Below, in pieces: positions 1,903-13,774 of a stretch of DNA of 20,130 bases (positions are counted from its first letter, which is position 1; each line of letters opens with the position of its first letter). Both the position numbers and the translations under genes were made by a program. Location of the stretch: the IMG/VR virus record IMGVR_UViG_3300049846_001141; one strand, written 5' to 3'. The notes beneath the pieces were generated by a model. The model made no database searches and had not been told where the DNA came from. It saw only the letters and a program-made list of their open reading frames with translations. The DNA comes from an uncultured virus (IMG/VR IMGVR_UViG_3300049846_001141). Taxonomy: Duplodnaviria; Heunggongvirae; Uroviricota; Caudoviricetes.

Positions 1903-3417
1903 TTAGCTCTCTTCGAGGTCTTCACGCTCTTCTTCTGTTGCCTCTTCTTCGGCAGATTCCTGTGGTTCCAGCTGTTCGTCGTCGGTGTGGGGCAACATGC
2001 CAGTGCTAAGGATTTCGCCTTGGCGCAGAATGTCGCGGAATTCTTCGCGGTCGATGACCTGCTGTGCGAACAGGGAAGTCAGCGCCGTAATGTCTTGGCC
2101 GATCAGGCGGTCAATGTCGAAGTCGCGGCTGATGTAGACCTTCGGGGGCTCCAGTTGGAGGTAGGTGGCGGCGTAGTTGAAGGCTTGCTGCAAGGTCTGC
2201 TGGAGGTCCATCGAGACCATCGACAGCATGGAGTTGGTGTCGACACGATCCAGGCGGCGGGCGTCGGCAGATTCGGCAACAAACTTTTGTTGGCTCAGTG
2301 TGCTGATGCCCAGTGTTGCCATTTGCTGCTGCAGTTCGCGGATTTCGTTGGTCTGCGCTTCGAACGCGCTAGACGCAGGCTCCACGTAATAGACCTTGTT
2401 ACCGGGTTGAGTGGCAATCGCGTAGTTGACGCCGACCGCCATGTCCTTGGTCTGGTCGTCCCAGCCCTCTAGGACGAGCATTGGTTGGGATGCGATGTGG
2501 AGGCTATGGATGAGGTCGGCTTGGCGTTGGAAGTGCGCGAGGTTTAGGTATGCAATGTCCAGTAGGGGTGGCTTGCTAACCAGGGTGTCGGTTTTGTTGG
2601 CGTACAGCGTTACGAGAGGGATTTCGCCCAGGCTGTAACTGCCGGTTTCGACTAGCTCGTAGTCGCTGGTGGTGGCAGAGGTGGTGTCGTAGCTGTTGGG
2701 GTAGGGCATTGAGCCCACCATTTCTTTGCGGGTCTCGCTCTGGCGGTAGATGCGGTAACGGCCGGGTTCGATGACGCGGACTTGGTCGTAAACCTTTTCG
2801 CCGAATTCGCCGTCGGGCAGCACGGCTTTTTCGCCGATGCGGACCTGGATCAATTTGCCGTAGTTGACTTCGCGGTCCAGGCGCCAGCCGTAGACGTTCG
2901 CAGGGTCGACTTCGATCCAGTAGGGGCGGCGGTTGAGGGCGCGTTCTTCAGCAAGACTTCGCGCTCCAGAGGGAGCGGGGAAGTCCACCAAGGTGTGGCA
3001 GTGGCCATAGGTCAGGGCGCAGATCAGCGTGCGACGTGCATATTCGTCCAAGTCAGAGCCGCAACCGTCGACGTCCTTGGCGAAAACTTCGCTCCAGTAC
3101 GGGTCGCCTTCAAGAGTGATTGGCTTGCGCAGGATTAGGCCGGAGGCGGCGCGGATTAAACGCTGCGTATAAGGAGAGAAAACAGCGCGGTTGACACGGC
3201 TCAAATAGGCCGAGTAGTCCTCGCGGGGTTCCAGTGGGAGGAAGGCTTCGCTGTTCTCGCGCAGGTATTCCGTGCCAAGCGTCACCGCTTTCATGATTTC
3301 CCAGCCCTTCATCTGGTCCAGCACGGCGCGGGTGCGGGTGAAGGGGTTGTCAGATCCGCCCATGTAGGTGGAGCTGACGAGGTGGGTGCGGATCTGGCCG
3401 GGGACTGAGTACGTCAT
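1903..3417 (-). CDS. Portal protein (DUF4055-like)
   Basis: 504 aa; motifs FLPLEPRE..YSAYLSR, DVDGCGSDLDEY, KPPLLDIAYLNLAHFQRQAD, ESADARRLD characteristic of DUF4055-type portals; position between terminase and scaffold. Confidence 0.9.
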   Translation of the reverse strand: MTYSVPGQIRTHLVSSTYMGGSDNPFTRTRAVLDQMKGWEIMKAVTLGTEYLRENSEAFLPLEPREDYSAYLSRVNRAVFSPYTQRLIRAASGLILRKPITLEGDPYWSEVFAKDVDGCGSDLDEYARRTLICALTYGHCHTLVDFPAPSGARSLAEERALNRRPYWIEVDPANVYGWRLDREVNYGKLIQVRIGEKAVLPDGEFGEKVYDQVRVIEPGRYRIYRQSETRKEMVGSMPYPNSYDTTSATTSDYELVETGSYSLGEIPLVTLYANKTDTLVSKPPLLDIAYLNLAHFQRQADLIHSLHIASQPMLVLEGWDDQTKDMAVGVNYAIATQPGNKVYYVEPASSAFEAQTNEIRELQQQMATLGISTLSQQKFVAESADARRLDRVDTNSMLSMVSMDLQQTLQQAFNYAATYLQLEPPKVYISRDFDIDRLIGQDITALTSLFAQQVIDREEFRDILRQGEILSTGMLPHTDDEQLEPQESAEEEATEEEREDLEES

Positions 3418-4600: not shown

Positions 4601-5851
4601 TTAATAGAGGCGATAGCTGGTTTGACCCAGCGTGCCGGCCTTGGCGAGGTTGAACTGCTGTAAACACAGGTAGCCAAAGGCGTCGAAGGCGTGGTCCACA
4701 CCAAGATTCTTGTTGGGGAGGCCCGTGCCAGGGGCGTAGGTGAGGGTGCGGAGGGACTTGATGAGTTCTTTGCAGCGGGGGTGGATGTAGGTGCGGCGGG
4801 TTCCAGTCGCATCGAGAAGGGCGGTGTTGACGGCGGTGATCTTGTCGCGGATTTTCCAGGGGGCTTTTGGGCTGGAGACGTTGAAGCCGCTGCGGCGGAG
4901 GATGTTGTGGTCGGTCAGACCCACGCCGCTGGTTTTGCGGGCGCCACCAGTGGGGTCCGGGCAGGCGATCACGCGGCGATCCACGCCGAAACGGCGGGTG
5001 ACTTCCTCGGCGAAGTCCCAGGTGGTGGCGCCGCCAGTGAGGATAATTTCGTCGAAAACATAGAGTGTTTCATTATCTTTTACAGCGCAAATTCCTGACA
5101 TCGGGCTAACATTAAAGTCGACGCCAAGCAGTAGCGGTAGGACAGAAATATCTGATGCTTCGGTTGAAATGTTTTCGTCGCCGAATGATATTGCAACGAG
5201 GCCGCTGAGGTTCTCGAAGCTGGCCTCGAATTCTTGGCGGAAGGTGCGGGCGTCGAGTTGGCCTCTTGCGGCTTCAATCTCCTCCGGGGGGACGTTGTCG
5301 CCTTCAATCGTCGTGAATTGCCAGCGGCTCCAGTTGTCGTCGCCGCTATCCGCGTATTGCCAGAGTTCGTAGAACCAGCTGGCGGTGCCATCCGGGGTGG
5401 AGATGAAGAGTGCCCAGCCTTGTTTGTCGGCGAGGGCGGGGCGGATAACCTCGAACCAGACTTCGCTGGACATAAATGCGGCTTCGTCGAGGACGACTCC
5501 AGCGAGGCTTCTGCCTCGCAGAGCCATTGCGTTTTCGGTGCCTTTCAGCTCGATTGTTGAGCCGTTTACTAGTTCGATCTTCAAATCCGTCTCATTTTTG
5601 GCCTTAATCCATGCTTTAGGGACTAACTTTTTCAATAATTTCCACACAATATCCTTACTCATGCGGTACGTTGGAGCACAATAAAAGAACGTTTCTCCGG
5701 GTCGTTCTATAGCTCCACGCAGAAGTTCCACGCAGGAGAGGTAGCTCTTACCGAAGCGGCGTCCGGCGACTAGGACGCGGAAGCGCTTGCGGCTTGAGAA
5801 AACTTGGCCCTGGGCGTAACGGAGGCTGACCGCTCCAGCAGATTCGGGCAT
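4601..5851 (-). CDS. terL: Terminase large subunit
   Basis: Walker A AGRRFGKS, Walker B VVLDEAAF, motif III ISTP, nuclease GVDFNV and C-terminal DHAFDAFGY. Confidence 0.95.
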
Positions 5852-5996: not shown

Positions 5997-6011
5997 TGAG
6001 AATGATTCTCA
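5997..6011. promoter_or_regulatory. 7-1-7 palindrome TGAGAAT-G-ATTCTCA (Fur-box-like), copy 1
   Basis: Perfect 7-1-7 inverted repeat, extendable to 11-1-11 with one mismatch (5993-6015); resembles the Fur 7-1-7 consensus TGATAATnATTATCA. Confidence 0.6.
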
Positions 6012-6044
6012 CTCCCGCAGGGGCAAGCGGTGCGGCGTCAGTCG

Positions 6045-6188
6045 CTAGCGGCCGAGCACGAGCAGTCGGCACTCAGCCTGGCCGCGGCCGGTAGCCTCGC
6101 AACGTGCCAGCTGGGCGGCATTGTCGGCGCCCATAGCTAGGACGCCAACGCCGATCAGTAGGACGGCGAGTAGGTGGAGACGTGTCAT
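6045..6188 (-). CDS. Small single-pass membrane protein with a Cys pair (47 aa)
   Basis: Not in the track: MTRLHLLAVLLIGVGVLAMGADNAAQLARCEATGRGQAECRLLVLGR; has its own promoter-like element upstream. Confidence 0.7.
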   Translation of the reverse strand: MTRLHLLAVLLIGVGVLAMGADNAAQLARCEATGRGQAECRLLVLGR

Positions 6189-6214
6189 AGGGAAGCGTGG
6201 TGAGCTTGCCTCCC

Positions 6215-6243
6215 ATTGTTGCACACTATCGGCCAGCGGTCAA
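6215..6243 (-). promoter_or_regulatory. sigma70-like promoter TTGACC-N17-AACAAT
   Basis: Exact 17-nt spacing upstream of the 6045..6188 gene; same architecture as 14623-14651. Confidence 0.5.
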
Positions 6244-6698
6244 GGCTGGCGCCGATCCTCCACGGTGATTTCCAGGCGAGGCGCTGCAGCCGCTGCGGCT
6301 TCCGGTGCGACCTCACCAACCACAGCGCCGAGGTCGCGCATCAGCAGCTGAGCGCTTCCGATCTGACCCTTACGAATTGCCACGTCGATAGCGCGTAGGC
6401 GCATCCCCTGGAGACGTGAAACTATCGACTCCCTATCCTTCTGCCAGTCCTGCTCGTTCCACTGTTTTACAGCATCCCAATCTCTCCAGGCTGTAACTTC
6501 GCCGATGCCTTCACGATCAGCATGATCTAGCACCAACTGCCGAACGGTCAAACCCGTTAGCTGGCGTTTGTACAAACGCTTCCTACGCTCTTCAATAACA
6601 GCGTCAGGATTCCGCTTACCGTATGGGCGCTGCGTATTCTTTACAGCTTCCGGCGCAATCTCCGGCGCTTCGCTGTTAGCTTCCGGTGCGTCGCTCAC
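6240..6698 (-). CDS. Probable terminase small subunit (HTH-like helical protein)
   Basis: Upstream of terL; helical protein with HTH-like segment (LTVRQLVLDHADREGIGEVTAWRDW) and C-terminal beta tail (PRLEITVED). GTG at 6698 preferred because a TAGTAT -10 lies at 6725-6730. Confidence 0.6.
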   Translation of the reverse strand: MSDAPEANSEAPEIAPEAVKNTQRPYGKRNPDAVIEERRKRLYKRQLTGLTVRQLVLDHADREGIGEVTAWRDWDAVKQWNEQDWQKDRESIVSRLQGMRLRAIDVAIRKGQIGSAQLLMRDLGAVVGEVAPEAAAAAAPRLEITVEDRRQP

Positions 6699-6748
6699 TG
6701 TTAAGATCCGCTGCGTTTGATTCAATACTAGCGCCACCACTGCGGCAC

Positions 6749-6776
6749 AATAAAAGCCCGACCATAAGGCCGGGCC
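6749..6776 (-). terminator. Intrinsic terminator of the leftward early operon
   Basis: Minus strand GGCCCGGCC-TTAT-GGTCGGGCT followed by TTTATT, just after the stop of 6798..7445. Confidence 0.75.
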
Positions 6777-6797
6777 GTTGATCGGTAAGGGCGCCAG

Positions 6798-7445
6798 TCA
6801 GCAAGGCCGGAAGACTGCCCATTGGCTCCCGTTGATCCGTTGCAACCAGTAGGCGTCACCAATCTCTAGTTCGCGCCAGGCAGCCTGCCAGTCAATGCAA
6901 CCTAGCGGCCATACTTGGGTGCCATCCGTCATCCCCAATTCTTCCGCTAACTGCTGAGCGTATTCTGCGCCAGCTTGTTCTGAGCTATAGCCTTCTGCCT
7001 CGCCTTGGTAGCAGTCTTTGTAGGTATCGGGATCGACGCCAGAAGCGCAAAGCTCAGAGACAACCGGCACCAAAGCCGCAGGGTCAGAGTCTGCAGCAAA
7101 GCCGCAATGCTCCAGGCACTCTGCCCATTCTTCCTGCAACCAGAATCCGAAACAAGAGCCATCGCCTTCGGACGCGCCAAAGTAGAAACCAGTCGGCGCC
7201 AGATCATTCAGGCGGTCGAAAGCCCAGGCAGTAGCCTCATCCCAGGCGTCGCACGGTTCCGGGCCGATAAGGTCCGAAGCGTAAGCGGCGCACTGCTGCA
7301 GATCGGAACGGAACGGTTCCGGTATGTCTTGCCCCAAGCGGTCAAAAGCGCCAAGGTAGGCATCGGCCAGATGGTCGGTGCGCAACGTGTCAGTGCTGAC
7401 GATCCAGGGGAAGGACGCCAGCTGTTCGGTGGTGTAGCGAGTCAT
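6798..7445 (-). CDS. Acidic protein with ArdA-like antirestriction C-terminal domain
   Basis: C-terminus YQGE...AEYAQQLAEELG...CIDWQAAWRELEIGDAY...AVFR matches the ArdA domain-3 pattern; N-terminal part has a LAPTGFYFGASEGDGSCFGFW motif; very D/E-rich. Confidence 0.6.
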   Translation of the reverse strand: MTRYTTEQLASFPWIVSTDTLRTDHLADAYLGAFDRLGQDIPEPFRSDLQQCAAYASDLIGPEPCDAWDEATAWAFDRLNDLAPTGFYFGASEGDGSCFGFWLQEEWAECLEHCGFAADSDPAALVPVVSELCASGVDPDTYKDCYQGEAEGYSSEQAGAEYAQQLAEELGMTDGTQVWPLGCIDWQAAWRELEIGDAYWLQRINGSQWAVFRPC

Positions 7446-7477
7446 GGTGTGAGCCTATGGGTTGGGTCTCGTGAAAT

Positions 7478-7506
7478 ACAGTAAGCCCGGACGGGCCAGC
7501 CGTCAA
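7478..7506 (-). promoter_or_regulatory. Near-consensus sigma70 promoter TTGACG-N17-TACTGT
   Basis: cgtcaa at 7501-7506 and acagta at 7478-7483 on +, 17 nt apart, directly upstream of the ArdA-like gene. Confidence 0.75.
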
Positions 7507-7946
7507 GCGTTACAGGCTAGGTAGATTCGCCCGCCGTCTCCTACGTAGGCGCCGATCTCACCCTGCGCAATCGCTAACTGCTCCATCGTCTCGCAGCAGT
7601 CACGCTCCACGCCGGGCCGCCACCGATCCGTCATGCTGACGCCGTGGCCGTCTCGCGCCAGTACGTAGGCGTGTTCCACGCGGTCGACGCCTAGCAGATC
7701 TTCAACGGAAAGCTCGCCTAGGCCGTATTCCAGCAGGCAGCCATCGGCAAGGTCGCGCCAGGCATAGTACTGATCAGACAATGCCTGCATGTCTTCCCGC
7801 CATGCGGCGGACATGTCGTGATCACGCTCCAGCGGTTCGCCGTTGTCATCTGACGTGGCCCATAGGATCGTCTCCCATAGCGCGGCGTCAACCATGCTCG
7901 GGCGCCAGCCTGCGGATTCTGCGGGATGGATGGTGCGGTTTTTCAT
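7503..7946 (-). CDS. Conserved phage early hypothetical protein
   Basis: 147 aa acidic protein; LWATSDDNGEPL...HAYVLARDGHGVSMTDR...GEIGAYVGDGGRIY resembles a diverged member of the GHDFWLTRNGHGAGFWD-type phage family (recalled, not searched). Confidence 0.75.
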   Translation of the reverse strand: MKNRTIHPAESAGWRPSMVDAALWETILWATSDDNGEPLERDHDMSAAWREDMQALSDQYYAWRDLADGCLLEYGLGELSVEDLLGVDRVEHAYVLARDGHGVSMTDRWRPGVERDCCETMEQLAIAQGEIGAYVGDGGRIYLACNA

Positions 7947-7949
7947 CGC

Positions 7950-8153
7950 TCAGGCCTCGCAAGTTGGGTTGATCTGAAGCGCTGCCAGAATCGCGCCAGT
8001 GGTTTGGTACGGGAAGTGCTGGCAGGTCGCACCGGCAAAGCGCCAGCAGCGGAACGTGCCAGACCAGTAAAGGTCTGAGGGATCTACACCAGCGGCCACA
8101 AGCTGAGCGGCTGTTGCTGGTGGGTGTGCTTGATCTCTGTAGTGGGTTTGCAT
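7950..8153 (-). CDS. Hypothetical protein
   Basis: 67 aa, ATG start, first gene of the leftward early operon, 3 nt from the next gene. Confidence 0.6.
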   Translation of the reverse strand: MQTHYRDQAHPPATAAQLVAAGVDPSDLYWSGTFRCWRFAGATCQHFPYQTTGAILAALQINPTCEA

Positions 8154-8204
8154 GGTTGCCTAGGTGTGGCTGCCCCAGATCCTAGCCTCAGCTCCAGCCC
8201 CTCT

Positions 8205-8264
8205 CTGCTGTTACTGTTGCACATCTTAACGTGGCTGGCAGCTGGCGGTGCTGCTGTTACTGTT
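8205..8264. promoter_or_regulatory. Divergent promoter region with 14-bp direct repeat CTGCTGTTACTGTT
   Basis: Repeat at 8205-8218 and 8251-8264; + strand CTGGCA-N17-TACTGT with TGn extension (8235-8263); - strand CTGCCA-N17-AACAGT (8241-8213). Confidence 0.6.
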
Positions 8265-8304
8265 AGAGGGTATCCCTCAAGCCGTACCCCGGCAGGATCG
8301 CACC

Positions 8305-8490
8305 ATGGCCACAACAGGAAAGGTCGTAACCGTCACCCTCTCGGGTGAGCACTGGTTACGTGTAGAACGTGCACTTCACGGCGCAGCTGCTCAGCTCCAC
8401 CGCACCGGCAACACCGCAGAAGCCAAGCGGTGCCAGCACACCCGCGAACTGATCCAGCACGTGATCACCCGTTGGGAGGTTGCGGAGTGA
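8305..8490 (+). CDS. Hypothetical protein (61 aa)
   Basis: ATG at 8305 with AGGA upstream; GTGA overlap with the next gene. Confidence 0.65.
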   Translation: MATTGKVVTVTLSGEHWLRVERALHGAAAQLHRTGNTAEAKRCQHTRELIQHVITRWEVAE

Positions 8491-8897
8491 GCGGCGGCGA
8501 ATGGACGACAAAGGGGCGCCAGCGAGAAGCCCGAGAAGCGGAGCGCGAACAGTTACGCCTGGAGAAGCGCCACCTAAGAGACCTCCGTTGGGCCATTGAG
8601 CGCTCCAGCATCGAAGCTTCGGATTGGGCCGACCTTTTAACGCTCCAGCAGGCCCACGGTAAAGAAGGTCCGCTCCAGCTGTGGCGGGAGCTTGTGCCGT
8701 ACTGGCGGGATTGCCAGCGCGTTAATGGTGGCGCCGATATCCCGGCGGATAGTTTTCCACAACTTCCGGGACTTTTAACGCGCGGCGCTCCAGCCGCTAG
8801 CGCTCCAGCGGCACGGGTCAAGGCATCGCCGGGGGCAGCCCGTAAGGTTCGCTCCAATAAAGGCAAAGCCCAGCCCAGCCGGAAGCGCTCCAGCTGA
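8487..8897 (+). CDS. Hypothetical protein with basic low-complexity tail
   Basis: GTG at 8487 overlapping the upstream TGA; MSGGEWTTKGRQREAREAEREQLRLEKRHLRDLRWAIER...; followed by a GC hairpin. Confidence 0.7.
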   Translation: MSGGEWTTKGRQREAREAEREQLRLEKRHLRDLRWAIERSSIEASDWADLLTLQQAHGKEGPLQLWRELVPYWRDCQRVNGGADIPADSFPQLPGLLTRGAPAASAPAARVKASPGAARKVRSNKGKAQPSRKRSS

Positions 8898-8903
8898 CCT
8901 CAC

Positions 8904-8924
8904 CGGCTCCCACCACGGGAGCCG
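8904..8924 (+). terminator. GC-rich hairpin after the rightward early operon (possible terminator)
   Basis: CGGCTCCC-ACCAC-GGGAGCCG, 8-bp perfect stem, only a weak pyrimidine tail. Confidence 0.45.
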
Positions 8925-8942
8925 ATTCCCTCTGCCTTGGCT

Positions 8943-8957
8943 TGAGAATGATTCTCA
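8943..8957. promoter_or_regulatory. 7-1-7 palindrome TGAGAAT-G-ATTCTCA (Fur-box-like), copy 2
   Basis: Identical 15-mer to 5997-6011; identity extends to 19/20 (TGAGAATGATTCTCAyTCCC). Confidence 0.6.
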
Positions 8958-9087
8958 TTCCCAGTGAGACTCATGAGACGCACCACGAGACAGCCGTAGG
9001 CGGAAATACCGGCCACGCTCCAGCAGACCTCCCATGCTGGGAGGAAGTATTAGCAGAATCGCCAATAAATACCAGGTATTGGCATTA

Positions 9088-9514
9088 TGAATGGTCAAAA
9101 CAATACCTGAATGGCCTTGAATGGCGTTCCAGTCATGAATGGCTTTTCGTCGAGGCCGTTAGGCCGAGACATGAATGGCCGTTTGTAGGTTCTCGAAATA
9201 TGAATGGCAGCGTTCCATGAATGAATTTTCTGCCTGTTCCAGTTCTGCTGCATCCATGTAGTGGACGTTGGGGGTGCCGCATCGACGTGCCAGCACGATG
9301 ACGGCGCCGGATGCTTTTAGGCCGGTTAAATGTTTGAGTCCCAGTGAATACGCTCCACACTGGTCGATGTATGAATGGCCGCTGGGAAGCCTGTCGTCGC
9401 GGTCGGTTTTACGTCCCACGCTAGTCTTCCAGTCGACAACATGAATGCCTTGTTTTCCTTTTACGGTGAGTAAGGCATCTGCCGTTCCAGCAAAACCTGC
9501 TGGGTGGTGAATGG
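9088..9514 (+). repeat. Array of co-oriented TGAATGG heptamers
   Basis: Exact copies at 9088, 9108, 9118, 9136, 9172, 9201, 9372, 9508; one-mismatch copies at 9218 and 9442. Confidence 0.85.
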
Positions 9515-9995
9515 AAAATTCGGAGGCGAAAATCTCCGTGACGTTTTCGGCGATCCAGTCAGATAGTGAACGAGCGTAACCTTTTGCACTGAATCCTACG
9601 GGGGGAACATTGGGGCGTACCCTTTTGAGTGCCCATTGTGTGATGGGAGCAGGAATACGCGCCAGGCCTTGTTCGTCCCAGCGAATAGAGTTTCTTTTGT
9701 TTGCTGTAGAACGTGCTAATTGCATTGAAGTTTTTAATAAATACTCTGCTTGATTGTGTGTCATGTTGCCTCTATTTGCTGCAACATTGCGCTGACAGGT
9801 GGCTTCTACTTCCCCGAGGCGTGCAGCCCAGCGTTCCAGTCCGGTGGTGTCGCTTGTCTCTTTTAGTATTCTAGTTACACTGTGATACACGTTACCGTTA
9901 ATGTCCCGGTAGATCCTGCCGCCGGGGTCGGATTCGTCATCACGTTCCAGCTTCCAACGCCTTAATCCAGCAAGTGTGTCTTGTGTATTAGGCAT
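9159..9995 (-). CDS. PD-(D/E)XK exonuclease (RecB/lambda-exo-like superfamily)
   Basis: YHSVTRIL, RGNMTH, SE..I...GFAGTADALL, VVDWKTS and QCGAY motifs; ATG at 9995 downstream of a TAGAAT -10 at about 10020. Confidence 0.85.
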   Translation of the reverse strand: MPNTQDTLAGLRRWKLERDDESDPGGRIYRDINGNVYHSVTRILKETSDTTGLERWAARLGEVEATCQRNVAANRGNMTHNQAEYLLKTSMQLARSTANKRNSIRWDEQGLARIPAPITQWALKRVRPNVPPVGFSAKGYARSLSDWIAENVTEIFASEFSIHHPAGFAGTADALLTVKGKQGIHVVDWKTSVGRKTDRDDRLPSGHSYIDQCGAYSLGLKHLTGLKASGAVIVLARRCGTPNVHYMDAAELEQAENSFMERCHSYFENLQTAIHVSA

Positions 9996-10033
9996 TGAAG
10001 GTACTATTTCCCTTCTGGATTCTAGTACAGGTG

Positions 10034-10588
10034 TCAACACTTGAAAATTTTGCTGGTGGCCTTTGCGTGAAAACGCTTGATTGCACCAGGGGATGCCTGT
10101 GGTAAGCCTTTTTCAGGCGTGTGTTCCCCGTGCAGCAGGGCCGCTGCGGCTAAGTAAGCCTCCCGAGCCTCTTGCTCTGTTGCGTAGTGCCCCAGGTAGT
10201 ACTGCACGCCATCAATCCCGATTAAAGCCCTGTAGGTGCCGCTTGGGGTCCTCGTGTAGCCCTTTACGTTGCTGCGGTTGCAGTGATTGCCGGAACGGGT
10301 GGTCGAACGCAGGTTCCAGGGGCTGTTGTTGGCTCTGTTGCGGTCTATGTGGTCTATCTCCAGGGGCTCCGTACCTGTGACCCACTTCCAGACAAGACGA
10401 TGGGCTGAAAATTTGTCGTGGCGAATTTCGCCGACTATGTAACCCTTTGTGAATCGGCAACCAAACGGTTTACCTATGCGGTAGGGATTCTTGTGGGTGC
10501 GCCAGTAAAGCGTCCCAGTAAATGGATCTAGTGAAAACAGCTCCCACAGCTCTTCCGCAGCCGGTAGGGGCTTGTAAGCTTTCGCCAT
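10034..10588 (-). CDS. Free-standing HNH homing endonuclease with AP2-like C-terminal DNA-binding domain
   Basis: SAHRLVWKWVTG...IDHIDRNRANNSPWNLR (HNH_3 type) followed by YRALIGIDGVQYYLGHYATEQEAREAY..AA..LHGE (AP2-like). Confidence 0.9.
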   Translation of the reverse strand: MAKAYKPLPAAEELWELFSLDPFTGTLYWRTHKNPYRIGKPFGCRFTKGYIVGEIRHDKFSAHRLVWKWVTGTEPLEIDHIDRNRANNSPWNLRSTTRSGNHCNRSNVKGYTRTPSGTYRALIGIDGVQYYLGHYATEQEAREAYLAAAALLHGEHTPEKGLPQASPGAIKRFHAKATSKIFKC

Positions 10589-10611
10589 CGCCTATTCCTG
10601 GTAGGTGGTCG

Positions 10612-10650
10612 GGGGCAGGGTGTTGGAAGCACCGCTGCCCCACCATTTTA
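10612..10650 (-). promoter_or_regulatory. -10 hexamer and leader hairpin of the HNH gene
   Basis: Minus strand TAAAAT (10645-10650) followed by GGGGCAG-C-GGTG-CTTCCAA-CACC-CTGCCCC. Confidence 0.5.
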
Positions 10651-10654
10651 CCTA

Positions 10655-11236
10655 TCAGGCAGGCTTAAAGGGGTTTGTTCCCTCCAGGAGCCTCGAAATA
10701 TCGAAGCCGTCAGACTTCGCTTCCAGCCATGCTGCGTCAATAAATTCTTGAGATCCTTTCTTTCTAGGTACCGGACGAACTGAATACTCAGTCGTTAAAC
10801 CTGAGCCTTTTTTTGATACGGAAAAATCCCAATCAAGCAAGTTGCTATAGTCATCAAGCTGACTAATCGCATCAATTTCTTTCAAAATTGATTTTTGGGT
10901 AATCTGTAGTACTTGAACTTTTCCAGCGTCATATACGTACACGGGGATTGCTATAGCAAACTTCACATCTGCTGTTCCAGGGCCACCGCGTCCTTCGCGG
11001 GGCTCGAACTCGCCCATTTCGGCAACCACGTCCTCATAAGTGGGCTCGTATGAAAACCGGAAAGGTTTGTTGACCCCGTTTGCTTGCCCCCAGCACTCGT
11101 GAAATTCCAGAGGTTCGTCAGTGAGTAGGGCGAAGCGGACGGATCCACCATCGGGGAGTTTGCTGAGGCTCAGGTAGCCGCCGCCGCTGTTGCCGCCGTT
11201 GACGTTTGCAGATGCGGATTTTGAAAGGAAAGCCAT
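10655..11236 (-). CDS. Probable single-stranded DNA-binding protein (gp32-like)
   Basis: ATG at 11236 (MAFLSKSAS...); GGYLSLSKLPDGGSVRFALL and WDFSVSKKGSGLTTEYSVRPVP pattern, C-terminal NPF; lies between primase and exonuclease. Confidence 0.6.
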   Translation of the reverse strand: MAFLSKSASANVNGGNSGGGYLSLSKLPDGGSVRFALLTDEPLEFHECWGQANGVNKPFRFSYEPTYEDVVAEMGEFEPREGRGGPGTADVKFAIAIPVYVYDAGKVQVLQITQKSILKEIDAISQLDDYSNLLDWDFSVSKKGSGLTTEYSVRPVPRKKGSQEFIDAAWLEAKSDGFDISRLLEGTNPFKPA

Positions 11237-11377
11237 TTGTGTAGGTGTTTGGTGTGGTCGGCTGAGTGCCAACGAGTAACACACTAACACGCCTTGACAC
11301 CGATGGCTAGGCTGAAAAAACGCCCCACAGCGGAAAAGCTGCAGGGCGTGTGGAACATTCTCATGTGAGACTCTAAC

Positions 11378-13774
11378 ATGTCGCAAGGTAAGACGCAGGA
11401 TCTGCTGGCTTTTGTGCGCCAGTTGCCTGTGGGGATGGCGTATGCACCGATCTACGCCAAAGGCGAGAAACTGCCCTCAGGGTCGGTAAGCAAGGGCAAG
11501 ACGCCCACAAAGCGCAGTCATGACGAGGTGATGAGCCCGGCTGACGTCGCTCTGCAGATTGAGCGCCAGCCGAAGGTGTTCCAAGCGGTGGGCGTCTTTA
11601 CGGGCGGTCGCAGCATGGGACTCGTGATTCTTGATGTGGATCGGAATCTCAGTCGTCTCAAAAAGAAATGGGGCGAGTCGCTGGAGGGTGCTCCAGTCGT
11701 TACCTCGACCAAGGCGAACGCGGCGAAGTACCTGTTCCGTGTCCCTGAAAATTTGTGGGGCTCGGTGCAGGGTTTTGGCCTGTCCGATACCGGGGCTGGG
11801 TACGAGGTGCTCTGGGGCCGTCAGGGCGTCATCTACGGGGCTTATCCGGGCTCCAGTGATGGGAAGGCACCAGAAGGTCAATACGGCTTTGAAGGGGACT
11901 TGGAGGCGATTCCAGAGGCTCCTGCGTGGCTGATCGCTGAGATGAAGGAGCGGGCTGGCAAAGGTGTTGAGGATGCCGGCTTCATCAGGAACCGCAAGGC
12001 GCTTGATTTCTCGGATCGAGATCCAGCTGAGGTGGCTGAGATCATTCAGTCGGCACTGAAGGTCATTCCGGGGCAGGGGGCTGGTAGCCGGGACCACTGG
12101 GTCAAGGTGGGGATGGCGATCCACTCGGAGTTGCCGACTGACCTAGGGCTAACGCTGTGGTCTGCGTGGTCTGCGGAAGATCCGGAGTTTTCACAGGAAT
12201 GGGAGGAGGGCAATCCCTGCGAAGCCGCTTGGAGGAGCTTCAGGAAGGGCCCTGTAAGCCTCGGGACGCTCTTCTGGATGGCGGACCAGCAGATGCCTGG
12301 GCGGCTGTGGCTTGCGGAGGATCTGCGGAAGGTTGTTGAGGAGGTTGAGGGCGATAACGTCACGCGGATTCGGCAAGTCGTCATTACCTATGCCGAGGTG
12401 ATCCGCCGGGCCAAGGAGATCCAGCAGATTCAAAACCCGGCGGAAGCGGCGCACGCCATGAATGTTTTGGCGCTGGAAGCTGGGTATCGGGATGCTGGGG
12501 CTCTGGAGCGGTTGCTGATCGCTCAGATGCAGTTCGAGCAGCAAGATGACGAGATGGCGATGGACAACCTGCTCAACAAAGATCTGAAGTTTGAGTACCT
12601 GATCCCAGATCTGCTGCCCTGCCCTGGGACCGTGATGATTCACGGCGCTGGTGGGGATGGCAAATCCATGTCCGCTTGGACGATTGCCAAGCACGTGGCC
12701 CGTGGGATTCCATTCTCCGTGCGCGGGGATCTTGTTCCAGTGGAAGCTGGTCCCGTTTTGATCCTCAACGGCGACCAGTCAGAGGTCCAGGTTCAGCAGC
12801 AGCTTCGGGATCTGGAGTTCCAGCCGTCGGATCCGGTGACCGTGGTAATGGGGTGGGACCTGAACTGGTATTACCGCTTCGTCAAGCTGATCGAGAAGCA
12901 CCAGCCGAAGCTCGTGATCATCGACTCGATCACGGGCTGCAGCAGGGGATCGGCGTTCGACGAAAACAAAAAGGAGTTTGCGAGCCCGATCTACTGGTTA
13001 GCCAACAACAACGGACGCATGTTCCCGGCTTGCACCATCCTGCTGATCCACCACGCCAACAAAACTGGCGGCTTCCGGGGTTCCACGGCCATTAGGGACG
13101 CTGTGGATGAGGTGTGGGGGCTGCGGCGGCCGGACAAAAAACAGGTTGAGCAGACCGGCTACAACGCTCGCCTCATCACCGTGGAGAAGTCCAGGGCTGG
13201 CCGAGATGGCTCCAAGCTGCTGATGAAGCTCGAAAACGACCTCACCTTCTCCCTCGCGGATTACGTGGAGGTCGATACCGACAGCGCCAGCCCGGCATCA
13301 ATCGTGGATCGGGTGCTCCAGCGCCTCAGGGCTGCTCACCCGCGTGCTCTGAGCCGCTCTGACCTCGCTGCGGATGCCCTGTGCGGTGGAAGTGTCGCCG
13401 CTATCGGCAAGGCGCTCCAGAGGCTTGCTTCGCGGGGATTGGTTGAGGTGGTCGGTCAGACCTCCACAGGTGCCAGACCTTCCAATCTGTACCAAGCAAT
13501 TCTCTCGCGTGATATGTGTGTGAAAGTGTGTCCTGAATTGGGAAAACCCAGTCAGGGACTGGAAAGTAAAAAAGGACAGCCCTTGGACGTGTCCTCTTTT
13601 GCTGGGGAGACTGGAGCAAAAAAGGACAGCCCTACCCTGTGTCCCGATTTGTTTCCCAGTCGTACCAAGGGGTTTGGTGAAAGAGGACAGCTTTTTGAAG
13701 GCTCCCCAAGGGATGAACGCTCTCCTGAGGAGTTGGCAAGGCTGATGCAGGAAGCCGCACGGATGTGGGACTGA
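11378..13774 (+). CDS. PrimPol-PriCT2-RecA-like (AAA_25/SF4) primase-helicase
   Basis: N-terminal Prim-Pol (GLVILDVD), PriCT-2 (RDHWVKVGMAIH...LWSAWS), Walker A GAGGDGKS, Walker B VIIDS, LIHHANK/RGSTAIRDAVD, C-terminal wHTH-like region. Confidence 0.9.
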   Translation: MSQGKTQDLLAFVRQLPVGMAYAPIYAKGEKLPSGSVSKGKTPTKRSHDEVMSPADVALQIERQPKVFQAVGVFTGGRSMGLVILDVDRNLSRLKKKWGESLEGAPVVTSTKANAAKYLFRVPENLWGSVQGFGLSDTGAGYEVLWGRQGVIYGAYPGSSDGKAPEGQYGFEGDLEAIPEAPAWLIAEMKERAGKGVEDAGFIRNRKALDFSDRDPAEVAEIIQSALKVIPGQGAGSRDHWVKVGMAIHSELPTDLGLTLWSAWSAEDPEFSQEWEEGNPCEAAWRSFRKGPVSLGTLFWMADQQMPGRLWLAEDLRKVVEEVEGDNVTRIRQVVITYAEVIRRAKEIQQIQNPAEAAHAMNVLALEAGYRDAGALERLLIAQMQFEQQDDEMAMDNLLNKDLKFEYLIPDLLPCPGTVMIHGAGGDGKSMSAWTIAKHVARGIPFSVRGDLVPVEAGPVLILNGDQSEVQVQQQLRDLEFQPSDPVTVVMGWDLNWYYRFVKLIEKHQPKLVIIDSITGCSRGSAFDENKKEFASPIYWLANNNGRMFPACTILLIHHANKTGGFRGSTAIRDAVDEVWGLRRPDKKQVEQTGYNARLITVEKSRAGRDGSKLLMKLENDLTFSLADYVEVDTDSASPASIVDRVLQRLRAAHPRALSRSDLAADALCGGSVAAIGKALQRLASRGLVEVVGQTSTGARPSNLYQAILSRDMCVKVCPELGKPSQGLESKKGQPLDVSSFAGETGAKKDSPTLCPDLFPSRTKGFGERGQLFEGSPRDERSPEELARLMQEAARMWD
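13529..13689. repeat. Dyad-symmetric TGTCC/GGACA array (candidate replication origin)
   Basis: TGTCC 13529, GGACA 13574, TGTCC 13590, GGACA 13624, TGTCC 13640, GGACA 13685; 16-bp direct repeat AAAAAAGGACAGCCCT at 13568 and 13618. Confidence 0.7.

Follow-up and report, generated by a model that had tools for sequence, protein, structure and literature searches.

What does a seven-letter word do that is written again and again, always in the same orientation, across the end of a phage nuclease gene? The question is raised by a stretch of 20,130 nucleotides (hereafter, the window), which forms the second half of a viral contig of 39,837 bp (G000:C1:19708-39837; IMG/VR record IMGVR_UViG_3300049846_001141, Caudoviricetes), in which the word TGAATGG forms an array that runs from the gap between two convergent genes into the coding sequence of an exonuclease. 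A first-pass annotation of the letters had taken this array for a polar platform of many protein-binding sites. The array proves to be real; it is a polar cis-element under strong selection, shared by uncultured aquatic phages of a widespread family, and its reading as a strand-specific replication zone is the one favoured here.

The word is found exactly eight times in the window, always on the plus strand, at 9088, 9108, 9118, 9136, 9172, 9201, 9372, and 9508 (positions are those of the window unless stated otherwise), with the near copies TGAATGA at 9218 and TGAATGC at 9442. The eight exact and two near copies on a single strand reported by the first-pass annotation are thereby borne out; in 100 dinucleotide-preserving shuffles, with both strands pooled, the mean was 2.82 copies and the maximum 7, and eight were reached in none. 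Its statement that the window holds no other copy also stands, as the eight sites between 9088 and 9514 account for all of them, and the rest of the 39,837-bp genome adds no plus-strand copy and one minus-strand copy (genome position 8769). The density of direct repeats at this one locus is thus six exact copies in 120 bp and eight in 427 bp. Four boxes (9088-9142) are intergenic, those at 9172 and 9201 fall within the last 16 codons of the nuclease gene, and those at 9372 and 9508 lie deeper in it; the exact in-gene copies are read as SIH, GHS, CHS, and AIH, as had been listed. The nuclease operon has the minus strand as its sense strand, and there the word is CCATTCA. Extended into its flanks, the core becomes the 9-mer (A)TGAATGG(C), present in four exact copies and in four more with one mismatch, and a matrix of 294 distinct instances from relatives shows A at -1 (0.55), C at +7 (0.60), and little else. 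The 137 distinct spacings between adjacent copies peak at 12-13, 18-21, 24, 36, and 38-39, not at multiples of 10.5, and no overall helical phasing of the boxes was found among them.

The same array is present in the relatives. A nuclease-guided scan of IMG/VR gave 148 confirmed loci, of which 80 were taken; a second scan, with an alignment of close relatives, returned mostly the same loci, and a scan with P0125 returned none. CCATTCA clusters at the 3' end of the nuclease gene and just past it in almost all of the 80 loci. After the removal of identical regions, 68 distinct loci with at least 400 bp downstream of the nuclease were left, and between -60 and +400 of the nuclease stop codon at least two copies are present in 66 of them and at least three in 57, with one copy in L081 and none in L073. 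According to the first-pass annotation, the idea of a platform would fall if relatives lacked any equivalent array; what was found is an array of three or more copies in these 57 loci. No reversed copy occurs in any of the 68 segments, and CCATTCA is by far their commonest repeated 7-mer. The heptamer is constant, the spacers vary in length and sequence between subgroups, and the arrays have grown as units of a box and its spacer were duplicated. Few copies lie outside the nuclease locus in complete relatives (six of nine copies in G002 and eight of ten in G003 are within it). The synteny is constant as well, with PrimPol, SSB, (HNH), nuclease, array, and convergent gene in this order and, further on, the terS-like gene, a small open reading frame (ORF), and TerL. 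The identities of the single genes vary independently, which marks the relatives as a mosaic population.

A deeper set was obtained by a search of 1.8 billion representative proteins, which gave homologues down to 40-50% identity and from which 80 more of at least 581 confirmed loci were taken. The nuclease family is large, with 822 related proteins at E ≤1e-5 and more than 580 viral loci encoding a relative. The density of the word was calculated for distinct loci anchored on the nuclease stop codon, in bins of 250 bp. In group A (70 loci, at least 70% identity) it amounts to 11.6 per kb between 0 and +250 and 6.2 per kb between -250 and 0; between -500 and -250, inside the nuclease gene, it is 10.4 per kb in group B (37 loci, GC content at least 0.48) and 5.9 per kb in group C (25 loci, GC content below 0.48). 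At the nuclease peak, the density of the reverse orientation is zero or near zero in all three groups. Complete group B genomes hold 10-12 copies in one orientation and 1-3 in the other, concentrated in a zone of 3-4 kb that begins at the SSB gene and ends downstream of the nuclease; the G010 lineage has no cluster. A complete genome with a nuclease of only 28% identity (tblastn) bears an array right after the gene and also a Prim-Pol ORF of 787 aa, and Prim-Pol ORFs are likewise encoded by the array-bearing G007 and G017. As a separate observation, two lineages without a CCATTCA cluster have another, strongly oriented heptamer clustered locally at the nuclease, CCTAAGC (13:1) in L137 (G012, a 28-kb contig) and GCCTCCT (13:3) in L139 (G013, a 53-kb genome).

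Outside this family, a nucleotide search of an isolate-phage collection gave no match, and among isolate-phage proteins only remote relatives were found (portal, 37% to cyanophage S-2L; TerL, about 43% to Vibrio phages and S-2L), with no isolate encoding this nuclease. A literature search for the word as a phage repeat returned nothing relevant. The hints to a host conflict, one relative being binned with Gammaproteobacteria and another with Ilumatobacteraceae. A Chi-like or other oriented word read by the host would be expected to be over-represented in the host genome; the Gammaproteobacteria bin with a relative (G006, 3.8 Mb) contains 333 copies of the word on both strands, not above simple expectation, and the link between this bin and the phage is doubtful because the other relative is binned with a different phylum.

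The word is also written into protein-coding sequence. The first-pass annotation had suggested synonymous positions as a place to look, and the word does exceed what synonymous codons alone would give in the nuclease genes. In shuffles of synonymous codons within each gene (2000 per gene), the window nuclease, with its four copies, stands above a mean of 0.48 and above the highest count, 3. In five group B nucleases, 4-5 copies are present against means of 0.36-0.70 and maxima of 3-4, the observed count being reached in 0 of 2000 shuffles. The nuclease of L034, a close relative from group A, has four copies (P=0.001), and that of L142, a distant relative of low GC content, has two (P=0.027). 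Two HNH genes that lie inside the array of some relatives carry seven and four copies against means of 1.81 and 0.77. The in-gene copies of group B encode AIQ, AIH, SIH, HHS, PFI, and THS and thus use all three frames, and the nucleases of distant relatives that hold the word are 41-56% identical, at GC contents of 30-60%. The excess over the shuffles indicates that the choice of codons is bent to write the word, which means selection at synonymous sites strong enough to shape codon usage in two unrelated genes. Together with the conservation in relatives, it bears out the general idea of a polar, multi-site cis platform that lies partly inside coding sequence.

The single copies of the window are not kept equally. 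The box at 9172 is retained in 0.90 of the aligned relatives (rank 6 of 282 same-phase 7-mers) and the one at 9201 in only 0.11. The copies at 9372 and 9508 overlap near-invariant residues (GHS and SIH), so a part of their conservation, which is high but not exceptional, is driven by the protein. The functional core in this genome is 9088-9224; the values for the other copies are given in Table 1.

Which genes surround the array? The layout was established from ORFs, family searches, and the pattern of substitutions among relatives. The leftward operon consists of the SSB-like gene, the HNH_3 gene, and the nuclease gene, in this order, and then comes the array. The nuclease gene ends with a stop codon at 9159-9161, its true start is likely near 9995 (MPNTQD...), and its codon-position substitution pattern among relatives fits coding. 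A profile of 19 homologues matches human MGME1 (E 7e-17), and with the AF2 model (pLDDT 92.1) the nine best Foldseek matches are MGME1 structures (E 2.4e-11 to 7.8e-10, TM up to 0.76), RecE, AdnAB, Dna2, and Cas4 ranking behind them. The array-bearing exonuclease is MGME1-like, not a generic one. The rightward block contains the PrimPol-helicase gene, a dCTP-deaminase-like gene, and the gene of a family A DNA polymerase, which spans the contig end and continues into the first 395 contig bases. The polymerase, the PrimPol-helicase, the SSB-like protein, and the MGME1-like nuclease make up a replication module similar to those of T7 and the mitochondrion. On the other side of the array, the gene at 8430-8897 has substitution rates of 0.169, 0.093, and 0.415 at codon positions 1, 2, and 3, as expected of plus-strand coding, and the gap at 8898-9158 has no codon periodicity (0.20, 0.20, 0.22); the array therefore lies where the ends of two convergent transcription units meet.

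The array is unique in the genome, polar, under selection, and co-inherited with the replication module. The favoured explanation, to which a probability of about 35% is assigned, is that it serves replication as a priming or loading zone whose boxes a conserved replication protein reads as DNA, the PrimPol being considered first. In the proposed mechanism, the distal end of the SSB-(HNH)-exonuclease operon holds 3-10 CCATTCA/TGAATGG boxes, each of which would be recognised separately by a replication protein that is conserved among the phages. The strongest candidate for this reader is the PrimPol-helicase of the archaeo-eukaryotic primase (AEP) type, which would bind the word in single-stranded DNA through its primase/helix-bundle part. 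Priming or loading would then take place in the zone, which would be an origin and might be a second-strand origin located on the displaced, G/T-rich strand. We infer all three parts of this explanation: the reading at the level of DNA, the PrimPol as reader, and initiation as the outcome.

Several data are in line with it. The word is invariant over GC contents of 30-60% and down to protein identities of 28-50%, so the reader must be conserved. In the PrimPol, the N-terminal Prim-Pol/PriCT_2 blocks are conserved at 0.87-0.93 and the C-terminal 118 aa at 0.34-0.51; the best-conserved part of the protein is thus the AEP/PriCT_2 blocks, which matches the invariance of the word and is counted in favour of the PrimPol. 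The free spacing, the use of any frame, and the lack of 10.5-bp phasing suit the reading of single boxes in single-stranded DNA better than a cooperative platform on the duplex. Complete relatives have one zone per genome, as expected of an origin. The TGAATGG strand is rich in G and T along almost the whole genome, whatever the orientation of the genes, and the cumulative GC skew rises throughout, from a minimum at 203 to a maximum at 39,707. This is compatible with TGAATGG lying on the strand that would be single-stranded longest under one-directional or strand-displacement replication. The AT content is 0.51-0.59 over 9044-9243 compared with 0.32-0.42 on the left (g155p) side; beyond the array it is 0.42-0.51 through the nuclease gene and 0.58-0.63 at 9644-9793, with no distinct AT-rich block. 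There is also a precedent in phage NrS-1, whose PrimPol depends on specific words in the template, an 8-mer and GTG(A/G), to which the helix-bundle domain of the enzyme binds (PMC8718748).

A number of points weigh against this explanation. The array copies are all sense to the genes around them, and a stop codon is often where they start, a placement that an RNA element explains at least as well. The PrimPol gene is located 2.2 kb from the array and is not adjacent to it. The primase words known so far are short, and they occur dispersed rather than in clusters. The 48 forward and 7 reverse copies in the oppositely transcribed PrimPol genes reduce to 8 and 6 independent sites, which is no real orientation bias, so independence from the direction of transcription is not established. 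The GC skew has no discontinuity at the array. The second arrays beside the terS-like gene and the array of L229, both described below, point to packaging instead. Finally, in P4/SaPI-type systems iterons are read by the C-terminal domain of the initiator. An explanation of that type was considered for the array and excluded, the C-terminal 118 aa being the most variable part of the PrimPol.

The alternative that survives best, a serious rival although we regard it as rather unlikely, places the signal in RNA. The boxes would act as CCAUUCA in the 3' part and the 3' untranslated region of the SSB-(HNH)-exonuclease transcript, and also in the late-operon transcript where a second array follows terS, as a multi-site platform for an RNA-binding factor, which would control whether transcription terminates or reads through where the early and late units converge, or would act on the decay or translation of the mRNA of the flanking cistrons. 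Every array is sense to its surrounding genes, and arrays typically start in the last codons or at the stop and extend into the gap (nuclease, terS, L227, L229), where they are followed on the sense strand by hairpins without T-runs. The free spacing, with peaks near 12, 24, and 36 nt, also fits such a platform. When 60 distinct arrays were folded by prediction, the nucleotides of the boxes were less paired than the rest of the region in the sense RNA (0.54 vs. 0.44; 48 of 60) and not in the antisense RNA (0.42 vs. 0.40; 32 of 60), but such a bias can follow from composition alone, as the word has no G, and with the window array folded as a single strand, the boxes took no consistent place in loops. 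Against the RNA reading, the group B cluster lies in the middle of an ORF (nt 315-545 of about 800), from which ribosomes would clear bound factors. Among the genes common to all array-bearing lineages, which are replication and packaging genes, no RNA-binding protein is evident, and an Rfam search gave no family match. The C/G ratio of the sense strand, 1.3-1.5, is unremarkable in a genome whose median is 1.14 and whose 90th percentile is 1.75; a plain Rho-loading (rut) site, which would need no invariant 7-mer, is thus not indicated.

The second alternative is packaging. The boxes might be the recognition array of a headful terminase (a pac site), with packaging starting at or beside them, an explanation that we consider improbable. 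TerL is of the Terminase_6N type, circular assemblies are compatible with permuted genomes, the array is unique in the genome, and TerL is the best-conserved protein across groups (70-94%). Further support comes from second arrays. A tight one, with spacings of 9-16 bp and in sense orientation, directly follows the terS-like gene in L020, L041/L046, L049, and L061, and in L069 a second array stands just before this gene. A pattern scan of IMG/VR for three boxes 2-30 nt apart gave at least 122 loci, among the matches listed 40 with and 82 without family genes. The 14 of these 82 that were inspected are mostly microsatellites or coding repeats. In L229, a PHROG terS is followed 0.6 kb downstream by an irregular array of nine boxes, and in L221, a tandem array with a 13-bp unit adjoins an HNH gene and a weak match to "replication initiation protein"; no family nuclease or PrimPol was detected in these two contigs, both of which are fragments. 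Against packaging stands the location of the main array, which in every lineage is in or beside a replication gene; it lies 2.35 kb from the terS-like gene in the window and is likewise apart from it in all relatives. Moreover, the 61 distinct terS-like sequences include at least two very different helix-turn-helix (HTH) types that share only a C-terminal tail, together with the same word, and the high mosaicism of the family would part a distant pac site from its reader; the identity of terS itself rests on position and a helical HTH model only. The first-pass proposal of a terminase array at a terminal-repeat boundary is not supported, on account of the distance from terS, the varied HTH types, and one point more: the contig ends share 108 identical bp that lie inside the DNA polymerase gene, which indicates the closure of a circular assembly and not a physical terminus. 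Two further observations concern the terS region. The gap between terS and terL is rich in repeats and variable in this phage family, and in L020 (7402-7660) an (ATTC)n microsatellite is followed by the second array, after which a 16-bp sequence is repeated in tandem about five times.

Even less probable is a platform on duplex DNA at the convergent junction, whether an operator or enhancer, a polar barrier (terminus), or a T5-like injection stop. The array does lie between convergent genes, beside the regulatory-looking GTCTCATGAGTCTCA element and the TGAGAATGATTCTCA palindrome that recurs upstream of terL, and some tight arrays are spaced by 9-13 or 18-20 bp. However, the absence of overall phasing applies here as well, the boxes occur inside ORFs in three frames and across 100-450 bp, unlike cooperative operator arrays, and the neighbouring "regulatory" elements are missing from many array-bearing relatives. 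A T5-like stop, one of the suggestions of the first-pass annotation, needs a fixed leading end, and none is indicated, nor is there a terminal repeat near the array. A replication terminus, another of its suggestions, finds no support in the cumulative skew, which is monotonic and does not turn at the array. The weakest alternative, already disfavoured and in our view highly improbable, is that the boxes have no function of their own and are debris or a by-product, e.g., remnants of HNH gene ends spread by slippage and gene conversion: arrays and HNH genes do share a 15-nt unit, CCATTCACTGGAACG, the codons for NPFTGT at the HNH N-terminus, HNH genes come and go at this locus, slippage products such as (ATTC)n lie beside a second array, and pure (CCATTCA)n microsatellites exist in unrelated viral contigs, but the word is kept while spacers diverge, down to 28-50% protein identity and at 30-60% GC, it is enriched by codon choice at several sites in the nuclease gene and never reversed in the zone, and most box units are unlike HNH genes.

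If the array is compared with known systems, each resembles it in part. Origins with iterons in or beside replication genes include the lambda ori in gene O, SPP1 oriL/oriR, P4 ori/crr, and the SaPI ori. The array shares with them direct repeats in a replication module, a partly coding location, one or two places per genome, and perhaps an AT-richer setting; it differs in its irregular spacing and in its host gene, which encodes an MGME1-like exonuclease and not an initiator. The word is also invariant while the C-terminal domain of the PrimPol varies, the opposite of the co-variation of iterons and initiators in P4 and SaPI. The pac sites of P1 and SPP1 (pacL/pacR) are built of repeated short boxes, and they resemble the array in that it is made of an asymmetric word, is unique in the genome, occurs together with a headful-type TerL, and has a terS-side copy in some relatives. 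In contrast to them, the main array is kilobases from terS, in the replication module, and the DNA-binding region of the terS-like protein varies while the word is constant. The mitochondrial light-strand origin, a single stem-loop primed by RNA polymerase, is used by a T7-like replisome. The phages have in common with it a family A polymerase, a primase-helicase, an SSB, an MGME1-like exonuclease, and a signal on the G/T-rich strand, but here the signal is an array of unstructured boxes, and strand displacement is deduced from the skew only. TRAP, HutP, and CsrB-type repeats are multi-site RNA platforms and likewise consist of many short single-stranded words at cistron ends, on the transcribed sense strand and with spacers that vary; their motifs do not match the word, and no Rfam family covers it. 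Another AEP primase-polymerase with a template recognition word is ORF904 of pRN1. The words of the NrS-1 PrimPol also bear on the favoured replication zone. Here, as there, a protein with Prim-Pol, PriCT-type, and helicase parts is encoded and the word is strand-specific and independent of spacing and frame; NrS-1-type enzymes start synthesis only at specific short words of a single-stranded template, bound by the helix-bundle domain (PMC8718748). The words given there are different ones of 4-8 nt and are not reported in that source as clustered arrays (PMC8718748), whereas the phages described here have 3-10 copies in one zone per genome.

The features discussed are collected in Table 1. The late genes form a long leftward block with capsid, scaffold, portal (1903-3417), TerL (4601-5851), and the terS-like gene, whose product has no family match; its model, an HTH with long helices, has no significant match in the PDB. 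A tyrosine integrase and an endolysin are also encoded by the genome. Family searches with the product of the convergent gene gave no match. The HNH_3 gene is mobile and is found, depending on the relative, between the SSB gene and the nuclease, after the nuclease, or not at all. Its placement varies in L027, L028, L035, L048, L051, L053, L074, L079, and L080, with 2-7 in-gene boxes when it follows the nuclease. The longest-ORF starts of the SSB-like and PrimPol genes overlap, and relatives indicate the ATG at 11236 for the former; the divergent gap of about 140 bp at 11236-11378 is probably the early promoter region. Contigs from RNA libraries (four runs from four studies) over 6000-12000 cover 9484-11857 best and 9118-9388 in two runs; they may derive from DNA and carry no information on strand, transcript ends, or expression level, and a lack of coverage is equally uninformative. 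No tRNA was found in a tRNA search, and a scan for promoters and terminators gave nothing beyond chance at the array.

Table 1. Features of the array locus and its surroundings (window positions; strand empty where none applies)
Feature	Position	Strand	Basis or remark
Core array, six exact boxes (9088, 9108, 9118, 9136, 9172, 9201)	9088..9207	+	word count, relatives' arrays
Near copy TGAATGA, nuclease codons SFM	9218..9224	+	7-mer kept in 0.68 of aligned relatives
Exact in-gene copy, codons GHS	9372..9378	+	kept in 0.56, rank 18/282 same-phase 7-mers
Near copy TGAATGC, codons GIH	9442..9448	+	kept in 0.33, not above background
Exact in-gene copy, codons SIH	9508..9514	+	kept in 0.55, rank 44/282 same-phase 7-mers
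MGME1-like PD-(D/E)XK single-strand DNA exonuclease	9159..10040	-	Pfam PDDEXK_1, PHROG exonuclease, profile, fold
HNH_3 homing-type endonuclease gene	10034..10588	-	family search
SSB-like gene, 193 aa from ATG 11236, first in leftward operon	10655..11236	-	PHROG 1192/1607
PrimPol-helicase (Prim-Pol, PriCT_2, AAA_25), candidate reader	11378..13774	+	family search
terS-like gene, named by position and predicted fold	6240..6740	-	HTH model
Gene without family match, convergent with nuclease, probable start near 8487	8430..8897	+	substitution rates
Hairpin CGGCTCCC-ACCAC-GGGAGCCG, directly after convergent plus-strand gene	8904..8924		sequence, relatives
Perfect 7-1-7 palindrome TGAGAATGATTCTCA	8943..8957		second copy 5997-6011, upstream of terL
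GAGAC x3 (GTCTC x3 on minus strand, within GTCTCATGAGTCTCA)	8966..8991	+	sequence, relatives
Hairpin CCTCCCA-TGC-TGGGAGG	9028..9044		stem kept in relatives with changed letters
Hairpin GCCAATA-N9-TATTGGC adjoining array	9061..9083		close subgroup of relatives only

The first-pass annotation had joined the array and its neighbours into a composite cis-element of about 900 bp. Two of its local observations are accurate: the hairpin beside the array is as described, and the CGCTCCAGC cluster, with its last copy at 9016, ends where the array begins. The composite itself is a mosaic and not a unit, as nearly all loci have the array, about half of them the GTCTC triplet (strict pattern), and 15 of 168 at least one copy of the Fur-like palindrome TGAGAATGATTCTCA. 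The triplet of GTCTCATGAGTCTCA trails the array by 13-23 bp or 94-134 bp in many relatives. In several of them (L008, L020, L029, and others), the ATG of GTCTCATGAGTCTCA opens a small ORF for a hydrophobic or membrane protein (MSLIATALVLIGVG...), and the small ORF between the terS-like gene and terL (about 6194-6045) has a hydrophobic core similar to that of the MSLIATALVLIGVG... ORF. The palindrome matches twice in the window, against a shuffle mean of 0.05, and its architecture may resemble that of a Fur-type box; some relatives bear it at both equivalent positions, upstream of terL and in the gap between the array and the convergent gene.

A second oriented word also seems to be present. 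GCTCCAGC occurs 19 times on the plus strand of the genome and once on the minus strand, and the 9-mer CGCTCCAGC 11 times against none, with seven copies in 8601-9016, where they use three frames of the convergent gene (RSS, LQ, APA). Distant relatives have a related word, TGGNNCG(T), downstream of the nuclease on the nuclease-sense strand (TGGAACG and TGGAGCG; TGGATCG in those of low GC content), and a word of this type often abuts a box in the arrays, as CTGGAACG-CCATTCA. The CGCTCCAGC/TGGNNCG-type word thus looks like a second oriented word beside the heptamer. It is also worth mentioning that L004/L005, at about 430-570 near the 3' end of the PrimPol gene, contain three copies of a hairpin with the word in the opposite orientation in its stem (TGAATGGGACAC ... 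GTGTCCCATTC).

What would the array mean for these phages? Origins, pac sites, and other cis-signals decide how phage genomes replicate, package, and recombine, and to our knowledge they are almost unknown for uncultured environmental phages. One word of 7-9 nt provides a sharply defined, testable signal that is common to hundreds of phage genomes from freshwater and other aquatic habitats. If the PrimPol is its reader, the array would be the first natural phage origin defined by the words of an AEP primase rather than by initiator iterons, and it would link an MGME1-like nuclease to a mitochondrion-style mode of replication. The more specific proposal, a dedicated single-strand origin of heptamer boxes that the PrimPol of a mitochondrion-like replisome reads on the displaced strand in this family of aquatic phages, is a tentative one and rather unlikely as it stands. 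If it is true, then the word of this origin would have been kept across 30-60% GC and forced even into the coding sequence of the exonuclease and of the invading HNH gene.

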